Source of the DNA: Escherichia phage vB-Eco-KMB43
Strand: one strand, 5' to 3'
Length of the DNA: 64,000 nt
Sequence record: OR525698.1
The notes under the pieces were generated by a model. That model saw nothing but the letters and a program-made list of their open reading frames with translations. It was not told the DNA's origin and searched no databases. The first letter of the stretch is position 1. Each line of letters starts with the position of its first letter. This document shows, piece by piece, positions 21,830-43,789 of this stretch. The translations under genes and the position numbers were made by a program.

Positions 21830-22207
21830 TTACGGGTTTACTGCGTGTTCGTTACGAATCTTGAGCATTTTGTTTTGGAAGTTTTCCGCAGCTTGCTCAT
21901 CAATAGCATGAGTATACTTAAATCCAATGTATGCTGTCAAGTATTGTTGCAGAGCATAGACAGTAACAGGATTCTTTGCGGTCTTCTTGCCTTCGAGATA
22001 TATCAGATCACCACGAACATCAAACGCAAGTTTACGACGAATCACATTATCAACAAACTCATCAACAACAAAATGCCAAATGTTGCTATCGGTTCCAATA
22101 TCAAAATTAATCACACAGCCTTGTTTGACATAATCAAACGGTATCGGGAATAGTTTATAGTCAAGTTCGATAAACATTAATTGTTCTTTTAAGCTCATAC
22201 GTTTCAT
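21830..22207 (-). CDS. hypothetical protein (T4 rpbA position)
   Basis: ORF upstream of gene 45; start chosen at ATG 22207. Confidence 0.35.
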   Translation of the reverse strand: MKRMSLKEQLMFIELDYKLFPIPFDYVKQGCVINFDIGTDSNIWHFVVDEFVDNVIRRKLAFDVRGDLIYLEGKKTAKNPVTVYALQQYLTAYIGFKYTHAIDEQAAENFQNKMLKIRNEHAVNP

Positions 22208-22211
22208 TCTA

Positions 22212-22604
22212 TCACTTCCCATCAGCAATTGCGATCAGACGAGTTACTACTACGCTAGCGGCTTCAATCAGCAGTTCATCAGTGTCAATCTGATAACCCT
22301 TTTCGAGAATATCTTTACCTCGAATAGTTTTAGCGCCTTTAGCAATTGAATCATCGTAATACTTGCGCATTGCCGCGATCCATTCTTTTTGCACCATATC
22401 ATCAATATGCGCGTACAGTTCAAAGCGTGCTTGCTGCGGGATAACCTTCATTTTAGCTTTCTCGCTTTCTGGCATTTGTAGTACCCACGCTTTACGGATC
22501 TTGTTCATTGCTCGGTCAAATTCGAGACTGGTTTTCTTGTTCTGAATGTCTGCTACAGTAATTTTAGCCAGGTTTGCGGAAGTAGTCATAATATTAATCT
22601 CCAA
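22212..22604 (-). CDS. hypothetical protein (130 aa)
   Basis: ORF between 46 and 45. Confidence 0.4.
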   Translation of the reverse strand: MEINIMTTSANLAKITVADIQNKKTSLEFDRAMNKIRKAWVLQMPESEKAKMKVIPQQARFELYAHIDDMVQKEWIAAMRKYYDDSIAKGAKTIRGKDILEKGYQIDTDELLIEAASVVVTRLIAIADGK

Positions 22605-22619
22605 AATAAAATCAGTATA

Positions 22620-22850
22620 TCACGTTCTAAAGTTTGTTGCAACCCCAGCATCAGGGTAATCAAGTTTATCAAAGTTGGGGACCAGCATAAACTCATGATG
22701 ACGACAAGACAACATTTTTGTTATGTCTGCATCGCTGTATATGCTGTTTTTCATATCCCCCATACTAACTACATATTCTTCACCGGAATATAGATTGATT
22801 AAGGTATACAATTCTAACTCCGGCTGCGTCACTCTGTCAAATGTTAACAT
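22620..22850 (-). CDS. hypothetical protein (76 aa)
   Basis: small ORF overlapping the 3' end of gene 46. Confidence 0.3.
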   Translation of the reverse strand: MLTFDRVTQPELELYTLINLYSGEEYVVSMGDMKNSIYSDADITKMLSCRHHEFMLVPNFDKLDYPDAGVATNFRT

Positions 22851-24519
22851 TCATTTCAGTGAATCGCCCACGTTTAACCATCTTGAGATGACGGCTAAAA
22901 TCATCAGGGTTATGGTCACGATGGCTGATAATATACACGTTATCATCTAACTTGTCAATGATGGAATCAAGTGCTTTTACGCCTTGAACATCCGTAGCCC
23001 CATCATAAATTTCGTCGAGTACCAACAAAGAAATATTAGTACCAGATACTTTACCAGCAACATCACGCCATGTAAAGAGCATCGCAAGGTCAATACGTGC
23101 CTTTTCGCCTTGACTGAATGATGTATACGAAAACGATTCACGCCCCCGTGATTTGATTGTTTCGTTAAACTCTTCATCTAGCGTAAAGATATAATCCGCT
23201 TCCATAATATCAAGATAATACGCAATCCGATCATTGAAATATGGAATATATTTCTTGACGATAGACGCCTTAACACCGGAATCCTTCAACATTTCTGTTA
23301 CAAATCCACGGTGATATTTTTCAAGAACTAGCTTTGATTTTTCATTAGTAATCTCTACCAGTTCGTGTTCCAGTTTAGCAAGTTCTTCGGAATTGTCAAC
23401 CCTTTCTTTTTGCAATTCCTGCATTGCTTTCTGGATCTGTTTAGCACGACCTACAGATGCCGTTAAATTCGCTCTCTGTGACTCTATATCGCGTTTAATT
23501 TCCAAGACCTTAGTTTGTGCTGCCTGGAAAGAATTTGCTTTCTCGGCGTATTCTACGCGTTTCTCGTCAATCAGAGACAGTTTATGTTCCGCTTGTGCTT
23601 TTTGTTCGCGTACAGTCTGATCATTACCCTGAATGATCGGTTGTGTGCACGTAGGACAGATCCCGCCTTTCTCGTGCATATGGATAACACGGTCAAAGTT
23701 CTGGATCTGCGCACCAATCTGTGCGATAGCAGTATTAATTTTAGCCAATACCGCGCTAGGATCTTCCGGCATGACAACAGCCAATAGCTCATCGGTCAAG
23801 CGCGTTTCTTCGGCTTTAAATGCTTTAGCCGATTCTACCTCTTTATCATACATATTCTGTAAACGCTGGAGATTCTCGGCACTCGCCTTGCTAGCGTCTT
23901 CTATGTACTTTTTATGAGTGTTGATTTGTTGCTGAACGTGATTAGCTTTCATTTCCTGCATTTGGATATTCTGGGTAATCTCGCGCACATACGCTTTATT
24001 CAGTTTATCCATTTCGCCTAGCGTAGCAATATCAAGCAAATCCTCGACCAGTTTACGGCGACCCGCTGCCGGAAGACTCATAAACGGAACATAACCAGCA
24101 GTGCCTAAAACAACGATCTGTTTGAAGCTGGCTAGGTTCATGCCTATGATACCTTCAAAATATTCCTGAAAGTCTTTGGTGCTTGCGCTCTCGTCGATCT
24201 TTTGACCGTCGCGATGCACTTCGAATACTTCCGGTTTTTGACCACGTTTTATATAAAACTCTTTCCCGTCCAGTTCAAACCAGACTTCGACTAACAGTTT
24301 CTTTTTGTTGACGCTGTTAATCAATTGGCCTTTCTTGATACTACGAAACGGTTTACCGAACAACACAAAGCAAAGCGCCTCGATCATTGTTGATTTACCA
24401 GCACCGTTAACACCAGTGATTAGTGTCTTTTTGAATCCGTCTAGCTGAATCTCAACAGGTTCAGCACCCACGCTCATTATATTTTGATAGCGCAAGGTTT
24501 TAAAATTTAACTTTGCCAT
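22837..24519 (-). CDS. 46: recombination nuclease subunit, Rad50/SbcC-like ATPase
   Basis: N-terminus MAKLNFKTLRYQNIMSVG and Walker A GVNGAGKS align with T4 gp46; ATG at 24519; track start is TTG. Confidence 0.85.
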   Translation of the reverse strand: MAKLNFKTLRYQNIMSVGAEPVEIQLDGFKKTLITGVNGAGKSTMIEALCFVLFGKPFRSIKKGQLINSVNKKKLLVEVWFELDGKEFYIKRGQKPEVFEVHRDGQKIDESASTKDFQEYFEGIIGMNLASFKQIVVLGTAGYVPFMSLPAAGRRKLVEDLLDIATLGEMDKLNKAYVREITQNIQMQEMKANHVQQQINTHKKYIEDASKASAENLQRLQNMYDKEVESAKAFKAEETRLTDELLAVVMPEDPSAVLAKINTAIAQIGAQIQNFDRVIHMHEKGGICPTCTQPIIQGNDQTVREQKAQAEHKLSLIDEKRVEYAEKANSFQAAQTKVLEIKRDIESQRANLTASVGRAKQIQKAMQELQKERVDNSEELAKLEHELVEITNEKSKLVLEKYHRGFVTEMLKDSGVKASIVKKYIPYFNDRIAYYLDIMEADYIFTLDEEFNETIKSRGRESFSYTSFSQGEKARIDLAMLFTWRDVAGKVSGTNISLLVLDEIYDGATDVQGVKALDSIIDKLDDNVYIISHRDHNPDDFSRHLKMVKRGRFTEMNVNI

Positions 24520-24763
24520 TAATCCACTCCGCAATCACACATTCCATAATATTAAATGCTAACACATCTTCATCAATGTTGTAAACACTTGCCGCCTTCA
24601 CTTTAACTAGTGTGTCTCTGCGATCTGGCAACATGATCACATAATCCAGTGTCGCCGGATCATATGTCATAAAGGGATCAACATAAATCCCTTTATTCAA
24701 TGCTAGATATTCGCGAAGACCTTCTATAACCCTGTGTCTAAGGTAGGTCATCGATAGAATCAT
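24500..24763 (-). CDS. hypothetical protein (87 aa)
   Basis: ORF inserted between 47 and 46. Confidence 0.35.
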   Translation of the reverse strand: MILSMTYLRHRVIEGLREYLALNKGIYVDPFMTYDPATLDYVIMLPDRRDTLVKVKAASVYNIDEDVLAFNIMECVIAEWINGKVKF

Positions 24764-25356
24764 TTTAGTTTATGTTCCTCTAAAAATTCTTCAATTTCAC
24801 CTTGCAGGTCTTCCGCTTGTTGTTCCAGAATATCGCGAAATTCACCTACAGTCAAGCGATAATCACACTTCACCAGTCGATGTGGGAGAATATACCCTTT
24901 ATACATCGTCTCTGACGCTTCCAGGAATACCCCACTATGCATGACAGAGATCCAACCTGTTAGCGTCAATGGAGTATTCGGAAAATAATATTTGCTGGAT
25001 TGTTTCCACTGGACGAAAGCACCATATACAATCGGATTATATTCACCAACCACACTCTTAATAATGGATTCTACTTTGTCTTTTACAAAGTCGCCAATGC
25101 CCATAGTCACCATCAATTCTTGTGGGTGAATCACTTTAAGGTAACGACGGTAGCCGTCATCATACCACAGCTTAACCACTGGCTGACCCCACATTTTAGC
25201 AATACGCGCTTTCAGATAACCATAGATCGGATTCTTGTAATATGATTGTTTTAGTGTGTACGCGTGCACCAATTCAATAAAATATTCCATTGCTATCGAA
25301 TCAGGATCAGCCGCGACCATAGTCGTATTCATAATATGTTCCTCGTTCAATTTCAT
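24760..25356 (-). CDS. hypothetical protein (198 aa)
   Basis: ORF inserted between 47 and 46. Confidence 0.4.
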   Translation of the reverse strand: MKLNEEHIMNTTMVAADPDSIAMEYFIELVHAYTLKQSYYKNPIYGYLKARIAKMWGQPVVKLWYDDGYRRYLKVIHPQELMVTMGIGDFVKDKVESIIKSVVGEYNPIVYGAFVQWKQSSKYYFPNTPLTLTGWISVMHSGVFLEASETMYKGYILPHRLVKCDYRLTVGEFRDILEQQAEDLQGEIEEFLEEHKLK

Positions 25357-25624
25357 ATTGTTTCAGGTCTTCTAAAAGTTCATCCACTGCTTGTTTCAGT
25401 GTATGACGTAGCGTAAAGTAATAGCTTTCATCAAATTCTATTTCCGCGCGAGGAATAGAGCGAAACTTACACTTAACGGTAGTATCAGTGAGTCGCTTTT
25501 CGACCATCATCCGAACTTCTTCATGCTCTTTGGAATACCATACATCAACGGAGATCCCCTTGCGTCGAGCAAACATAGGCAACGCGGCATTAAATTCCAT
25601 TACTTTTTGTGCAAGTGTTTTCAT
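25307..25624 (-). CDS. hypothetical protein (105 aa)
   Basis: ORF inserted between 47 and 46. Confidence 0.35.
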   Translation of the reverse strand: MKTLAQKVMEFNAALPMFARRKGISVDVWYSKEHEEVRMMVEKRLTDTTVKCKFRSIPRAEIEFDESYYFTLRHTLKQAVDELLEDLKQYEIERGTYYEYDYGRG

Positions 25625-25884
25625 CGTACAGACCCCATAGACCCACGAGCAATAACATTCTGGGTAATATCAGCAACCTTACGAGATACGATGTTTGTTA
25701 GCCCCTCTTTGGTGATATTTTCACGATCAAATGGGATTTCGTCATGAGTCCACAAACCATAGTTAGACCGAAATGATAGCATATACTGACCATCTCGCAC
25801 AACCTCAAATACATGGATCTTAGTGAATTTCGATAAACCTTCGTTGATTTCTTTCAGTGCATTAGTAATCATAACAACCTCCAA
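25621..25884 (-). CDS. hypothetical protein (87 aa)
   Basis: ORF with own promoter-hairpin cassette upstream. Confidence 0.35.
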   Translation of the reverse strand: MEVVMITNALKEINEGLSKFTKIHVFEVVRDGQYMLSFRSNYGLWTHDEIPFDRENITKEGLTNIVSRKVADITQNVIARGSMGSVR

Positions 25885-25897
25885 TCAATTTTTAGAG

Positions 25898-25926
25898 AGT
25901 ATAACGGGGATTTCTCCCCGCGTCAA
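25898..25926 (-). promoter_or_regulatory. promoter-hairpin cassette (TTGACG, hairpin CGGGGAGAAATCCCCG as spacer, TATACT)
   Basis: 17 nt spacer is almost entirely a GC hairpin. Confidence 0.5.
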
Positions 25927-26952
25927 CTAACTTTTTGCGTTATTCACTTCGGCTAAAAGTTCATCAGAAATACGCTTGACCGCCGCAAGTTCTTCCGGTT
26001 CTAGGTTTTGTTCTTCCAGATATTCATAGACCATCTGAATAGTGCTTTTAACTTCAATAACACCTGTTTCCTGTGATGCGCTACTCTCCAGTTTATGGAC
26101 CACTTTTAGCTTGTGTACAACGGCCTCTAACGCGCTTTCTAACTTAGTTAATCCATTATCAGCGACCGTTGCGATAAGACGCACACTAAGCCCTTTAAAG
26201 CGTTCTACATCGATTTTATCATCTGACGGGTAAGTGATACGCACATGATAAGTTTTGTCATTCTGAATAAACTCTTTTTTGTGTGTATCGGTATCGAATA
26301 CCCAAAAACCACGCGGATCGTTTTCGTCACCCGCCGTTAGTGTGTATGGTGTACCAATATACGTTACGTTACCGCCATCACTGATAGTATGAAAGTGACC
26401 CGAAAACACTTCACGGTATTTCTTGAGGAAGTCCGCGCTATAACCTTCGGATTTTAGCCCTTTATAGAAATAGTAACCGGACAATTCCCAATGGCCTACA
26501 CAATATTCGCTGAATGAGTTTTGAATAAACTCTAAAACCTCTGATTTATTGTCATCACAAAACCACGGGAACAGATCAAATGATACACCATCAAAGGTAA
26601 CTGTTTCCGGTTTATCGATAACCTTAATGCAATCATACTGGCTTAACACTTCACGCGGTGCGTTAGGCTGGATCTTGTTTCGTTTAAACATATCATGATT
26701 CCCGACCGTTATATAACAAGTAATACCAGCCTCTTCCAGTAACGGGATGACCTTAGTACGGTTAAATTTCATGGTTTCATGGGTAATTGCTTTTCGGCAA
26801 TCAAACCAATCCCCTGTTTGAATCCATGTCTTAATATTATGCTCTTTGGAGTATTCAACCGCTTTCTTGATGGTATCAAGAATATACTCATGCACCCACG
26901 GATCATCGCCACCGATACCAGTATGCAGATCACCTAAAAGCAAAATTTTCAT
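25927..26952 (-). CDS. 47: recombination nuclease subunit, Mre11/SbcD-like phosphoesterase
   Basis: 341 aa; calcineurin-like motifs GDLHTG, GNHD. Confidence 0.85.
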   Translation of the reverse strand: MKILLLGDLHTGIGGDDPWVHEYILDTIKKAVEYSKEHNIKTWIQTGDWFDCRKAITHETMKFNRTKVIPLLEEAGITCYITVGNHDMFKRNKIQPNAPREVLSQYDCIKVIDKPETVTFDGVSFDLFPWFCDDNKSEVLEFIQNSFSEYCVGHWELSGYYFYKGLKSEGYSADFLKKYREVFSGHFHTISDGGNVTYIGTPYTLTAGDENDPRGFWVFDTDTHKKEFIQNDKTYHVRITYPSDDKIDVERFKGLSVRLIATVADNGLTKLESALEAVVHKLKVVHKLESSASQETGVIEVKSTIQMVYEYLEEQNLEPEELAAVKRISDELLAEVNNAKS

Positions 26953-26993
26953 AGTCTCTTCCTCTCTTCGTTTTCGATGCTCTCACTATATCA

Positions 26994-27020
26994 CAGAAAA
27001 ATAAAAAGGGAAACCCCTTT
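26994..27020 (-). terminator. rho-independent terminator
   Basis: AAAGGG-GTTT-CCCTTT hairpin then TTATTTTT on minus strand. Confidence 0.45.
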
Positions 27021-27043
27021 CAGAGTCTCCCTTATAAAAGCCA

Positions 27044-27331
27044 TTACAGCATACTTAATACCGTTTGCCGTGTACTAATCCACATAGCAGAAAGCAGTTC
27101 TGGCGTGTGTGGCTGTTTGTAGATATCACGTAATTTTCCGATAGCGTAGATATACGCATCACGATTATCATCGATGATAGCTTGTTCAGCCCACCGCTTA
27201 AGGCGTGCAATCTCTCGCGAGTTCTTACGCAAGATCTTTTCCGCTTTCTTAGCGGCTTTAGCCTCTAGTTCTGCTTGTACTTTGTCTACTTCATTCACTG
27301 CAATCTGGTCATGCTGTTCATCGTAAGTCAT
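27044..27331 (-). CDS. hypothetical protein (95 aa)
   Basis: ORF between 55 and 47, where T4 has alpha-gt. Confidence 0.35.
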   Translation of the reverse strand: MTYDEQHDQIAVNEVDKVQAELEAKAAKKAEKILRKNSREIARLKRWAEQAIIDDNRDAYIYAIGKLRDIYKQPHTPELLSAMWISTRQTVLSML

Positions 27332-27332
27332 G

Positions 27333-27566
27333 TTATTTTCCTTCTGGGATATAGTCGATGATTAAAGAAAATTCATCTTCTGATACATTATAGCTATGTG
27401 AGATTGTACCCGTCAAGACCTCAAGATCCGGTGATTTGATATTGCACGGATCGATAATCACCGGAACGCCGCAATCTCTCAAAAATAATTTGGCGAAATA
27501 CGGCACAAGGTCAGTTTCAAACTCTGCTTCTTCCAGCAAACGGGAAATGTTAATTTTCAATCTCAT
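27333..27566 (-). CDS. hypothetical protein (77 aa)
   Basis: ORF between 55 and 47. Confidence 0.3.
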
Positions 27567-28083
27567 AAAATTGGTCCAAGCTAGGCAATTCCTCGGTCAA
27601 TACATCTTCAACCTTTGGCGCTTTCGGTTTATTGACCGATTCCTCGTAGTTGTTGATTTTATCGTAAATGTCCTGTATGAATGCCTCATCAGCAATCTGG
27701 CACATATCAGCGTCGCGTTCGTCATATACATGATGCACAAAATATTTGTATTTTGCGGCTGTCGCTGTTCTCTCTTTTTTAATGCGCTGTACAAAAGCAT
27801 TAAAGCACGCTTGCGTGATGTAAGCATGAGGATTTTTATACTTTGTCTCGTCAAAATTAATCAAACCCTTGACCGCCGCTTCGATTCCATCGTCGATCAT
27901 TTCTTCGCGCCATGTTTGACTATAACCAGAAAAGTTAAAACGACGTGATAGATTTTTAGAGATTTGCATAATTGCCAGGCCGATTTGATCGCTCATTGGC
28001 ACTTGTCGACCTTCTGCCGCAATTCGTTGTTTCCAACGGCAAATTTCTTCGTAAAGCTCTTTATTGTTTACATAATCAGACAC
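27550..28083 (-). CDS. 55: late transcription sigma factor
   Basis: YVNNKEL...RFNFSGY...[22 protein letters not shown] nearly identical to T4 gp55; GTG start with GAGGGTG RBS. Confidence 0.85.
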
Positions 28084-28123: not shown

Positions 28124-29593
28124 CTATTCCCCATTACCATTATACTTTCTTTGCTTAGTTATCCACACTCTAACCATCTCTACAGATTCACCGTCAGACG
28201 GATCAAGAGTTTTTCCTTTTTTCTTCATGCGGTACTTAAATCCGTTAAATCTTGCATTCTCTTGCTCGTTAAAATCGAACATCTTTTTAAATGATTTTCG
28301 CCCTTTACGCTCACCACATTCTAGCGGAATCATCCGATCTGTTATTACATTGGCATTAGGCAGAAACGTTTTTAGATAATCTACCAACGCCCAATCAGGA
28401 ACATATAGATTAACATTCTCCTTGCTCTCGTTGTCTCTCAAGTTACAACGCAAACATAATTGAAATGCTGGTTCCAGATAATCAGACACATGACGCGCTT
28501 TCAAAAACTCATTTGTTGGGAGATCACAACTATTAGCAAGACCTTTTAAAATATCAATCTCCCATCGTTGAGGGTTAAAGCTGAACATCACAGCAACATT
28601 TTTATGATGAATGTAAGAGTTAAGACCATAAGACCCGTAAGGTATCCGCTCACCAATACCATTTGTGCACGCTTCACGGTCCCGATTCACGGTATAAATG
28701 AAGTCATCACCACATTCATTTTTAACCATATCAACAAGACGTTCAAAGGTATTGTTTGTTTCTGACTGGTGACGCGACCATCGTTCGGAGTCCGTCATAA
28801 GGATGATATTAACTCTATCTGTATTTTTATACTCTTTGAAATATAGTCTGGATTCTAGCGCACTCGGAACAAAATCGCAATTTGCATAGTATCGTAGATA
28901 CTTCCCGCTATATGTATCAAAGAGATTTGCACATGCTATCGTAACCTTTTTAAAGTCTCCCCACGTACCGTGTTTGTTATCGTTCAAGAAAACAATTTTC
29001 GACCCATTCTTCCGGTGTCCTTCGTTATGTTTTACCATAACGTTGATTTTCTTCTCTAATAACGCCTCATAAAGCCCTCTAAGAGAAGAATCGATCATAT
29101 CAGTACCATCCTTCGCACTTTCTATCTTTTCTTTGATAGCGGCCTTCTCAGAGTCTTTTAGAACTAAGTTCTGTAGGCATTCCGATTCGTCGGCGATTGG
29201 TTCGCAATGCTTCGTGATAAGTTCAAGATTAGACTTAAACGGATACTCATTAAATTCAACCAGTTGAGGAACTTCATCAATGTAAAGAGCATAATCACCA
29301 AACATTTTTGAACGTTCCATATTAGATAACGCTGTATGTGTAATGAATATCACATCAGCACCATCTTTAACTGATTGCATTATCGACGCTTGCACTGTCT
29401 TAAGGCTTCTTAGTCTGGTGCTATCAATCAAGACAGCACGACCGCCCATTCTTTTAAACTTATTGTAAGATTGTTCACTTAAAACACGAGATGGCGAAGC
29501 AATAACCGCTTTTTCTTTTGTCTCTAGGACGTGGGAAAGTATAGCATCAGTTTTCCCCGCCGCTGGCAATGCGATTAATGTTTCAATCTTCAT
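28124..29593 (-). CDS. P-loop NTPase of unknown function (489 aa), Cys-rich C-terminal half
   Basis: Walker A ALPAAGKT at residues 8-15, SF2-like Ia PSRVLSEQ, Walker B LYIDEVPQ; no T4 counterpart recognised. Confidence 0.5.
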   Translation of the reverse strand: MKIETLIALPAAGKTDAILSHVLETKEKAVIASPSRVLSEQSYNKFKRMGGRAVLIDSTRLRSLKTVQASIMQSVKDGADVIFITHTALSNMERSKMFGDYALYIDEVPQLVEFNEYPFKSNLELITKHCEPIADESECLQNLVLKDSEKAAIKEKIESAKDGTDMIDSSLRGLYEALLEKKINVMVKHNEGHRKNGSKIVFLNDNKHGTWGDFKKVTIACANLFDTYSGKYLRYYANCDFVPSALESRLYFKEYKNTDRVNIILMTDSERWSRHQSETNNTFERLVDMVKNECGDDFIYTVNRDREACTNGIGERIPYGSYGLNSYIHHKNVAVMFSFNPQRWEIDILKGLANSCDLPTNEFLKARHVSDYLEPAFQLCLRCNLRDNESKENVNLYVPDWALVDYLKTFLPNANVITDRMIPLECGERKGRKSFKKMFDFNEQENARFNGFKYRMKKKGKTLDPSDGESVEMVRVWITKQRKYNGNGE

Positions 29594-33310: not shown

Positions 33311-33339
33311 AGTATAGGGGATCGCGAGATCCCCGTCAA
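33311..33339 (-). promoter_or_regulatory. promoter-hairpin cassette (TTGACG, hairpin GGGGATCTCGCGATCCCC, TATACT)
   Basis: upstream of small ORF and nrdG. Confidence 0.5.
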
Positions 33340-43760: not shown

Positions 43761-43789
43761 AGTATAGGGGATCACCGATCCCCTGTCAA
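43761..43789 (-). promoter_or_regulatory. promoter-hairpin cassette (TTGACA, hairpin GGGGATCGGTGATCCCC as spacer, TATACT)
   Basis: 17 nt palindrome exactly fills the spacer. Confidence 0.5.

Follow-up and report, generated by a model that had tools for sequence, protein, structure and literature searches.

The four small open reading frames between the Mre11-like gene 47 and the Rad50-like gene 46 of Escherichia phage vB-Eco-KMB43, here called orfA to orfD, are best explained, with a probability that we put at roughly 60%, as a Krischvirus-specific early accessory cassette that sits in a recurrent 47-46 slot, is headed by a promoter-hairpin element (PeSL) and is co-transcribed with gp46. The cassette probably serves the interaction with the host. 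We analyzed a window of 64,000 nucleotides from sequence record OR525698.1. The genome belongs to Krischvirus (the RB49/Phi1/JSE group) and is 97 to 99.6% identical to 58 genomes of this genus, with LF73P4 as the closest isolate (99.6%). RB49p035 to RB49p038 (equivalent to EpJSE_00037 to 00040 and BN201_0036 to 0039) correspond to these four genes in both order and position, with 78 to 100% protein identity; they do not differ in kind from the genes in the window, which represents another isolate.

A preliminary description of the region had reported four minus-strand ORFs between the Mre11-like and Rad50-like genes, and they are present exactly as cited. As mechanical ORFs they span 25621-25884 (87 aa), 25307-25624 (105 aa), 24760-25356 (198 aa) and 24500-24763 (87 aa), and gp46 spans 22837-24534. 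The reported sizes hold for the 105-aa protein and for the 87 aa of orfD, but those of orfA and of the 198-aa protein are probably over-extended. The true start of orfA is most likely the ATG at 25872 behind a GGAGG Shine-Dalgarno sequence, giving 83 instead of 87 aa, and that of orfC the ATG at 25332 behind GAGGA, giving 190 instead of 198 aa; both are the annotated starts in JSE, RB49 and other genomes. Likewise, gp46 most likely starts at the ATG at 24519 (MAKLNFK...). The flanking genes are readily assigned: JSE and RB49 list gp47 as gene 47, Pfam Metallophos is recorded on its 92% identical orthologue in L030, and the gp46 orthologue of L030, which is 97% identical, carries Pfam SMC_N and AAA_23.

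Table 1. Features of the gene 47-46 region (positions in the window)
Feature	Position	Strand	Basis or remark
gp47 (Mre11/SbcD-like nuclease subunit), 341 aa	25927..26952	-	ORF listing
orfA, 83 aa, RB49p038 / phrog_15867	25621..25872	-	ORF listing, GGAGG Shine-Dalgarno
orfB, 105 aa, RB49p037 / phrog_15856	25307..25624	-	ORF listing
orfC N-terminal module, residues 1-97	25042..25332	-	helix, three strands, helix (predicted)
orfC C-terminal module, residues 98-190 + stop	24760..25041	-	helix, three strands, long acidic helix (predicted)
orfD, 87 aa, RB49p035 / phrog_14972	24500..24763	-	ORF listing
gp46 (Rad50/SbcC-like ATPase subunit), 560 aa	22837..24519	-	most likely start ATG 24519
PeSL (promoter + hairpin)	25898..25926	-	adjoins gp47 stop codon
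Terminator-like hairpin with T-run	27006..27033	-	between a-gt.4 homologue and gp47

The four genes and gp46 form one chain of overlapping stops and starts, of which gp46 is the final member. The orfA stop and orfB start share ATGA, the 3' end of orfB overlaps the start of orfC by 26 nt, the orfC stop and orfD start again share ATGA, and the last 20 nt of orfD overlap the start of gp46. The Shine-Dalgarno sequences and overlaps of the chain are conserved. This tight, conserved coupling to gp46 suits a nuclease-related role equally well. OrfA to orfD could be accessory subunits or regulators of the gp46/gp47 nuclease that are made in a fixed ratio with gp46, and they might act as loaders, as inhibitors that delay its activity or as protectors against host anti-nuclease factors. 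The stop/start overlaps that run through into gp46 speak for such a role, as do the position between both subunits, which is kept in all 58 genomes, and the small ORFs that T4 and several other lineages keep at the identical spot. We nevertheless regard it as unlikely, for reasons that emerge from the comparison with other phages.

Contrary to the statement that genes 47 and 46 are adjacent in T4, the latter has 46.2 (87 aa) and 46.1 (68 aa) between them, and the same two genes fill the slot in Mosigvirus. Across the T4-like phages, the slot is occupied in 8 of the 13 lineages surveyed, by at least six protein families that are unrelated to each other. A single ORF of about 90 aa is present in RB43-like, Klebsiella, Ishigurovirus and cyanophage genomes, Lazarusvirus has two ORFs, and the slot is empty in Karamvirus, Jiaodavirus, Gualtarvirus, Tulanevirus and Vibrio K440. 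The fillers belong to different PHROGs and show no mutual BLAST or hhalign similarity. Because the slot is occupied in T4 and Mosigvirus, small ORFs at this place are the rule in many T4-like phages and not a peculiarity of Krischvirus, and the 47-46 junction serves as a slot for recurrent insertion. Judging from the genomes compared, it is the identity and number of the slot ORFs that is genus-specific in Krischvirus. Conservation of the block as a T4-like core had been named as the observation that would speak against an insertion: every one of the 58 Krischvirus genomes has kept the block, but it is absent from the 12 other T4-like lineages surveyed, and hence it is not a T4-like core block.

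This diversity bears directly on the nuclease-accessory reading. With at least six unrelated filler families, the position of a gene in the slot says nothing about nuclease function, and in five lineages the two nuclease genes are directly adjacent. The earlier suggestion that the insertion adds accessory functions to the nuclease thus finds no support beyond position, given unrelated fillers, five empty lineages and searches that turned up no nuclease-related domain or motif. A short acidic-helix motif, (D/E)E(L/F)L, recurs near the C termini of gp47, orfB and orfC and would fit a nuclease-accessory role, but it is not conserved in orfB of the diverged contigs L017 and L019, and a 13-nt match is near chance expectation. 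For these reasons we rejected the idea that the 23-nt repeat with which gp47, orfB and orfC end encodes a mimic of the Rad50-binding helix.

T4 46.1 (DUF5487, phrog_2327) and 46.2 (phrog_2192) are likewise small same-strand ORFs that overlap their neighbors. They differ from orfA to orfD in being two, not four, and in having no sequence or profile similarity to them; in addition, 46.2 runs into the end of 47 in T4, which leaves that slot without a promoter-hairpin. Homology of the two sets was rejected, since BLASTP and PHROG comparisons were negative (orfA to orfD are phrog_15867, 15856, 16328 and 14972), no Pfam match was obtained at an E-value of ≤1 and hhalign probabilities were ≤0.6%. Homology to the fillers of Lazarusvirus, Pseudotevenvirus, Ishigurovirus, Klebsiella phages and cyanophages was rejected as well (BLASTP, hhalign and PHROG negative). 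A literature search for the function of T4 46.1 and 46.2 retrieved none.

Within Krischvirus, orfA to orfD are all present in 58 of 58 records, at the same position and with intact frames. A tblastn search with orfC and orfD (E-value of ≤1) matched only the 58 Krischvirus records among 50,697 phage records, and 5.8 billion clustered proteins, of which 1.84 billion representatives were scanned exhaustively with HMMER, yielded only Krischvirus-like relatives. Word-index, IMG/VR and JGI metagenome scans contained no wider relatives. One match in the protein scan, the 2,538-aa P0008, was discarded as a tandem-repeat artifact. In the diverged relatives, gp46 and gp47 are 80 to 88% identical to those of the window versus 39 to 40% for orfC. 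OrfB retains 46 to 50% identity in L017 and L019, orfD has 27% identity in L019 and is absent from L017, and the C-terminal module of orfC occurs as a free-standing 99-aa ORF in L019. At the orfA position, both contigs encode a protein without detectable similarity to Krischvirus orfA; homology was rejected at an hhalign probability of 0.7%, and this ORF is hence either a replacement or has diverged beyond recognition. That relatives with 87 to 88% identical gp46/47 miss orfD and have an unrecognizable orfA position is a further argument against a nuclease-accessory role.

The same turnover might suggest that the block is currently mobile, either as a PeSL mini-circle cassette or as an insertion of the homing-endonuclease type. 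PeSLs have been proposed to mediate cassette excision and insertion via mini-circles (PMC2839356), the presence or absence of orfD and the replacement at the orfA position attest to past cassette turnover, and an HNH homing endonuclease is inserted nearby, upstream of gp47, in RB49, JK32 and MIZ4. We consider present-day mobility highly improbable. The block lies at the identical place in all 58 genomes, a single PeSL borders it in the window and orfD overlaps gp46. Moreover, the g46 control of Arbiol et al., which is not PeSL bordered, gave no mini-circle product (PMC2839356). No HNH, GIY-YIG or LAGLIDADG domain was found in orfA to orfD with Pfam and NCBIfam, and the PADLOC defense profiles were empty except for a weak "HEase" match on orfD (E-value of 0.042; 11.5 bits).

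The promoter-hairpin noted earlier at the head of the block is exact: TTGACG, a 17-nt spacer (CGGGGAGAAATCCCCGT) and TATACT. The −35 box (25926-25921) and the −10 box (25903-25898) match the consensus at 10 of 12 positions, and their spacing lies within the 16 to 18 nt that we used as a criterion. Between them sits the hairpin CGGGGA-GAAA-TCCCCG, in which a stem at 25920-25915 pairs with 25910-25905 around a GAAA loop (25914-25911). The gp47 stop codon TAG is directly followed by TTGACG and then by the GGAGG and ATG of orfA. GTTGAC fits the preference of RB49 early promoters for G at −33. The pattern TTGAC-N18-TATAMT occurs 9 times in the window versus 0.11 expected by chance, and sister copies with GGGGA...TCCCC spacers lie at 33311-33339 and 43761-43789. 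Sigma-70-like boxes, a stem-loop, an intergenic site before an ORFan and repeated copies are the features of the PeSL class, which was described, with reporter assays, by Arbiol 2010 (PMC2839356); these assays cover other PeSLs only (211/210 and 206/205). The element is identical in 11 genomes. In L030 its stem carries a compensatory change from C-G to U-A, and among six PeSLs 94% of the cells are paired and four of the six pairs have changed on both sides. The compensatory change supports a functional role of the hairpin itself.

The PeSL is thus predicted to be a strong early promoter of the sigma-70 type with a stem-loop inside its spacer. The annotation of GEC-3S already includes a promoter located after gene 47 and before the first ORF; Nolan 2006 listed no early promoter at the 47-46 position in RB49. 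Upstream of gp47, the terminator-like hairpin is likewise annotated in GEC-3S and was predicted in RB49 in the supplement of Nolan 2006. It is followed by an extended −10-like sequence, TGaTATAGT, which probably drives gp47. The region contains no late promoter (TATAAATA), an Rfam search of positions 22000-28000 returned no RNA family, and a literature search for Krischvirus transcriptomes found none. RB49 is without MotA and without middle promoters (PMC1524935). Together with the missing late promoter, this favors transcription of the block in the early mode alone.

We hypothesize that host RNA polymerase fires at the PeSL straight after infection and makes a single polycistronic mRNA that runs through orfA, orfB, orfC, orfD and gp46 and onward. 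Because the hairpin lies upstream of the transcript start, it would form only on RNA coming from gp47. It has no U-tract and hence is not a canonical intrinsic terminator; it may end, attenuate or stabilize the upstream gp47 transcript. With transcription starting at the PeSL and the hairpin acting in this way, the transcription of gp47 would be separate to some extent from that of gp46, in a phage with neither MotA nor middle promoters. An uncoupling of 47 and 46 expression by the insertion is plausible from this arrangement, in view of the terminator and promoter before gp47, the stem-loop at the end of gp47 and the separate sigma-70 promoter that heads orfA to orfD and gp46.

Could the cassette be kept mainly for its promoter, with the PeSL supplying early transcription of gp46 and the downstream replication genes and the ORFs being near-neutral passengers? 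Conservation of the PeSL is perfect, in contrast to the variable ORFs, phages of the RB49 type are without MotA and middle promoters, and L017, in which orfD is missing, has a TTGACA-plus-hairpin remnant directly before gp46. Selection on the ORFs argues against this, and we find it quite improbable. Across 11 genomes, dN/dS is 0.22 for orfA, 0.12 for orfB, 0.24 for orfC and 0.15 for orfD, and all four are under purifying selection. The C-module of orfC is as constrained as gp46 (0.026 versus 0.028). In addition, the frames are intact in all 58 genomes, and 1.4 kb of coding sequence is not needed for a promoter. That the frames are chance products of a long spacer between 47 and 46, without a coding role, as small proteins without a database domain might suggest, is refuted by the same selection and conservation data: dN/dS values of 0.12 to 0.24, conserved Shine-Dalgarno sequences and coupled stops and starts, diverged contigs whose homologues are 27 to 50% identical, and a fold of orfC that is predicted with confidence.

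Purifying selection goes along with rapid change. The nonsynonymous rate of orfA to orfD is 3 to 8 times faster than that of gp46/47. OrfA has divergent alleles with up to 17.5% nucleotide distance, and alleles of the orfC N-module diverge by up to 19% at the nucleotide level, both in genomes whose divergence elsewhere is about 2%. The N-module has a dN/dS of 0.36, which is not above 1 and hence does not demonstrate positive selection, and an elevated dS of 0.28, which points to recombination between old alleles. As read from these alleles, the N-module of orfC is hypervariable and exchanged by recombination, and the C-module is invariant. Such fast evolution and shuffled alleles are unlike what one would see in obligate partners of a slowly evolving complex, which is another point against nuclease subunits.

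The 198-aa protein had been said to lack a recognizable motif, and searches against Pfam, NCBIfam, PADLOC and PDB sequences were indeed empty; orfA, orfB and orfD likewise had no match in Pfam, NCBIfam or PDB sequences. The predicted structure of orfC (pLDDT of 90) consists of two helix-three-strand-helix modules. Its C-module carries the invariant motif GVFLEASxTxYxGxILPxR, and orfB has a conserved C-terminal YDYGRG. A PD-(D/E)xK nuclease fold was rejected for orfC, as the D...(D/E)xK catalytic residues on beta-strands are absent. The model weakly resembles type III secretion class I chaperones (the CesT/SycE/SicP/ExsC fold).

In the early accessory cassette that we favor, the most speculative part is what the proteins do. 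OrfA to orfD may be soluble, small alpha/beta protein binders without enzymatic activity that act in host takeover or anti-defense, rather than nuclease subunits. The invariant C-module of orfC could be the common working part and its hypervariable N-module a target-specific interface. More specifically, orfC, together with orfA as a structural relative of one module, could form a new alpha-beta3-alpha phage family, with the N-module as an arms-race interface, that works in anti-defense or as a guard or decoy for the nuclease; we hold this to be improbable in that particular form. If orfC protects the phage Mre11-Rad50 complex (or its DNA ends) against a sensor or an inhibitor of the host, its co-encoding with gp46 makes sense.

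The block resembles the PeSL cassettes of RB49 and phi1 (PMC2839356; Comeau 2014, PMC4122927), which have a like layout of stop codon, −35/G/C-rich stem-loop/−10, Shine-Dalgarno sequence and ORFan ATG, are repeated in the genome and are tied to lineage-specific genes without assigned function. It differs from them in lying inside a conserved replication/recombination module instead of a large hyperplastic region, in that its PeSL heads four ORFs together with an essential core gene, and in having no second flanking PeSL; g46 is treated as not PeSL bordered in PMC2839356. GenBank records have contained both the genes and the promoter from the RB49 genome onward, and a description of the PeSL class dates from 2010; as a genome feature the cassette is of little importance. 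The predicted two-module fold and bipartite evolution of orfC would make it a reasonable candidate for host-interaction screens with Krischvirus therapy phages.

Paralogy among orfA, orfB, orfD and the two halves of orfC was rejected by profile comparison (best hhalign probability, 2.5%). As a separate observation, Foldseek aligned the orfC model with the BFVD model of orfA (the 011D4 orthologue) at a probability of 0.98, a TM score of 0.53 and an E-value of 0.07; this orfA model resembles a single orfC module, the sole hint of paralogy.

The four ORFs between gp47 (Mre11-like) and gp46 (Rad50-like), orfA to orfD, are most likely an ordinary early accessory cassette headed by a PeSL (promoter-early stem-loop) and fixed in Krischvirus in a permissive slot between core genes. 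Across the 4.2 kb surrounding the cassette, the sequence matches 58 genomes of this genus (the "pseudo-T-even" coliphages of the RB49/Phi1/JSE group) at 97 to 99.6% identity, LF73P4 being the top match. All relevant genes of the locus lie on the minus strand, where transcription would pass a terminator-like hairpin, gp47, a 29-nt promoter-hairpin, the four ORFs, and gp46. As mechanical ORFs, the four have exactly the coordinates and lengths listed in the preliminary description (87, 105, 198, and 87 aa); the table gives likely true gene starts, for which we read the sequence and compared how JSE, RB49, and seven other genomes are annotated. The junctions from orfA through orfD to gp46 are kept in 11/11 aligned genomes.

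Features of the gp47-gp46 locus, with protein identity to three metagenomic relatives (contigs L030, L017, and L019) used for rate calibration
Feature	Coordinates	Strand	Length	Details	L030	L017	L019
gp47	26952-25927	minus			92%	88%	80%
Promoter-hairpin (PeSL)	25926-25898	minus	29 nt
orfA	25872-25621	minus	83 aa	GGAGG Shine-Dalgarno	78%	no detectable similarity	no detectable similarity
orfB	25624-25307	minus	105 aa	start overlaps orfA stop as ATGA	83%	50%	46%
orfC	25332-24760	minus	190 aa	GAGGA Shine-Dalgarno; 26-nt overlap with orfB	86%	40%	39%
orfD	24763-24500	minus	87 aa	ATGA overlap	94%	absent	27%
gp46	start ATG 24519	minus		20-nt overlap with orfD end	97%	87%	not on contig

orfA to orfD are real genes, because their frames are intact in 58/58 Krischvirus genomes, homologues occur in diverged metagenomic relatives (27 to 50% identity), and dN/dS across 11 genomes is 0.22 for orfA, 0.12 for orfB, 0.24 for orfC, and 0.15 for orfD. 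Both flanking genes have lower values, 0.057 for gp47 and 0.028 for gp46.

We assign the promoter-hairpin, TTGACG-CGGGGAGAAATCCCCGT-TATACT, to the PeSLs because its sequence anatomy is the same as that published for the RB49 and phi1 elements. The commonest PeSL subclass has the stem-loop between -35 and -10; there are about 50 copies per genome, mainly upstream of ORFans, and other copies showed strong promoter and terminator activity in reporter assays (PMC2839356). The cassette copy directly abuts the gp47 stop codon, lies upstream of the orfA Shine-Dalgarno sequence, and is identical in 11/11 genomes; in L030 a double C-G to U-A change preserves the stem. Pairing holds in 94% of cells across six PeSLs, with 4/6 pairs changed on both sides, and the covariation score of this small sample, which includes paralogues, was reached by 0/500 shuffles. 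The promoter pattern occurs 9 times in the window versus 0.11 expected, and a search of the region for a late promoter motif found none. RB49 lacks MotA and middle promoters, and its 51 predicted early promoters omit the cassette promoter (Nolan et al. 2006, PMC1524935). Two sister PeSLs (window 33311-33339 and 43761-43789, minus strand) share the GGGGA...TCCCC spacer of the cassette copy, with TTGAC(G/A), a GGGGAT...ATCCCC hairpin within the spacer, and then TATACT. Strong sigma-70 consensus sites that lack a hairpin lie at 232, 2190, 19081, 21107, 43085, and 45260.

Owing to its position between -35 and -10, the hairpin is absent from RNA starting at the PeSL promoter and would be carried only by read-through RNA coming from gp47. 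We infer that the PeSL, whose hairpin has no U-tract, could terminate or attenuate the gp47 message while initiating a new one for orfA to orfD and gp46, with the cassette co-transcribed and translationally chained with gp46. The regulatory layout as such has good support from sequence, from comparison, and from what has been published on this element class. Upstream of gp47, a second terminator-then-promoter junction has a design unlike that of the PeSL: a strong, intrinsic terminator-like hairpin with a T-run (window 27033-27006, minus strand) is immediately followed by the extended -10-like sequence TGaTATAGT and then gp47. The GenBank record of GEC-3S already annotates both this terminator and the cassette promoter. 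Little of this is new: the genes (RB49p035-038), the promoter, and the element class are all on record.

Are the four proteins then accessory factors of the Mre11-Rad50 nuclease, the main rival reading and one that the preliminary description had considered? The conserved coupling to gp46 speaks for this, but a survey of the 47-46 junction in 13 lineages disfavours it. Genes 47 and 46 overlap or nearly touch in five (Karamvirus, Jiaodavirus, Gualtarvirus, Tulanevirus, and Vibrio phage K440). The other eight carry one to four ORFs: a single one of 88 to 95 aa in Pseudotevenvirus, a Klebsiella strabovirus, Ishigurovirus, and cyanophage P-SSM3; two in T4, Mosigvirus, and Lazarusvirus (85 and 203 aa); and four in Krischvirus. 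The premise that the two genes are adjacent in T4 was wrong, since 46.2 (87 aa) and 46.1 (68 aa, DUF5487) separate them there, and Mosigvirus has the same pair. Fillers outside Krischvirus belong to PHROGs 2192, 2327, 7762, 470, and, weakly, 8184 (KARL1_176 to none), those of Krischvirus to 15867, 15856, 16328, and 14972; BLASTP and hhalign found fillers to be similar only between T4 and Mosigvirus and in the RB43-like/Klebsiella pair. These dissimilarities mark the 47-46 junction as a recurrent insertion slot whose content in Krischvirus is genus-specific.

Close relatives also argue against nuclease partners, as they have lost or replaced orfD or orfA while gp46 and gp47 are nearly identical. 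The ORF at the position of orfA in L017 and L019 gave an hhalign probability of 0.7%, and in L017 orfD gives way to a spacer of 54 nt (1817-1871) that contains TTGACA plus an ATCCCC...GGGGAT hairpin and precedes gp46. Krischvirus has discrete alleles of orfA and of the first half of orfC, up to 17 to 19% apart in nucleotides, in genomes whose flanks diverge by about 2%. Neighbouring segments give poorly correlated distance matrices, and the alleles have therefore been shuffled by recombination. Such behaviour is that of accessory genes in hyperplastic regions, not of proteins tied to an enzyme that evolves slowly. The proposed lineage-specific content and possible transcriptional uncoupling stand, but nothing connects the ORFs to the nuclease. 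In gp47, the first 300 nt (window 26650-26953) form two alleles about 10 to 12% apart in the genus, with about 2 to 4% in the remainder. This segment borders on the a-gt.4/gp47 spacer (about 26953-27043) and adjoins the site of an HNH/AP2 homing endonuclease present in RB49, JK32, and MIZ4/5 and absent from the window, and the gp47 tract looks like one of homing-endonuclease co-conversion or cleavage resistance.

For orfC, the homology search suggested in the preliminary description returned only Krischvirus-like relatives (5.8 billion clustered proteins; 1.84 billion representatives exhaustively scanned) and zero matches in Pfam, NCBIfam, PADLOC, and PDB sequence searches. A 2,538-aa match was rejected as a repeat artefact. 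Once two diverged homologues joined the alignment, the pLDDT of the AlphaFold2 model rose from 51 to 89.7 (pTM 0.80), with 2/5 models still poor. The predicted fold places two helix-three-strand-helix modules in tandem, one spanning residues 1-97 and the other 98-190. The C-module is invariant across the genus (dN/dS 0.026; family motif GVFLEASxTxYxGxILPxR); the N-module has a dN/dS of 0.36 and elevated dS and may be the specificity end. L019 encodes orfC as ORFs of 86 and 99 aa (864-1413), split exactly at the predicted domain boundary, which could reflect either a genuinely split gene or a frameshift in the assembly. The pattern of evolution, together with a weak resemblance in fold to type III secretion chaperones, suggests that the cassette most plausibly encodes small factors that bind proteins and serve host takeover or anti-defence. 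What interest remains attaches to orfC, a bipartite family that recombines and is a candidate for host interaction.

At their 3' ends, orfC, orfB, and gp47 share a 23-nt direct repeat (74 to 83% identity, two copies having a 13-nt exact core in common; window 24770-24792, 25362-25384, and 25943-25965). It encodes an acidic helix, (D/E)E(L/F)L(E/A)(E/D), which in gp47 falls within the conserved C-terminal helix; diverged orfB homologues do not keep the motif, and the repeat match is near chance expectation. Upstream of gp55, a 489-aa ORF (window 28124-29593, minus strand) is conserved in Krischvirus, and the sole Pfam match on record for its orthologue is a weak one to DEAD helicase; the same position holds a 479-aa ORF in Tulanevirus AS-gz and one of about 480 aa, truncated by the edge of the locus, in Ishigurovirus ZPAH1. 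The orfB and orfD protein clusters include members under bacterial names, such as the partial "Bacillus atrophaeus" protein WP_239815975.1 and E. coli assembly proteins (e.g., H1Y97_004328/9), which are most likely phage contigs or contamination within bacterial assemblies.
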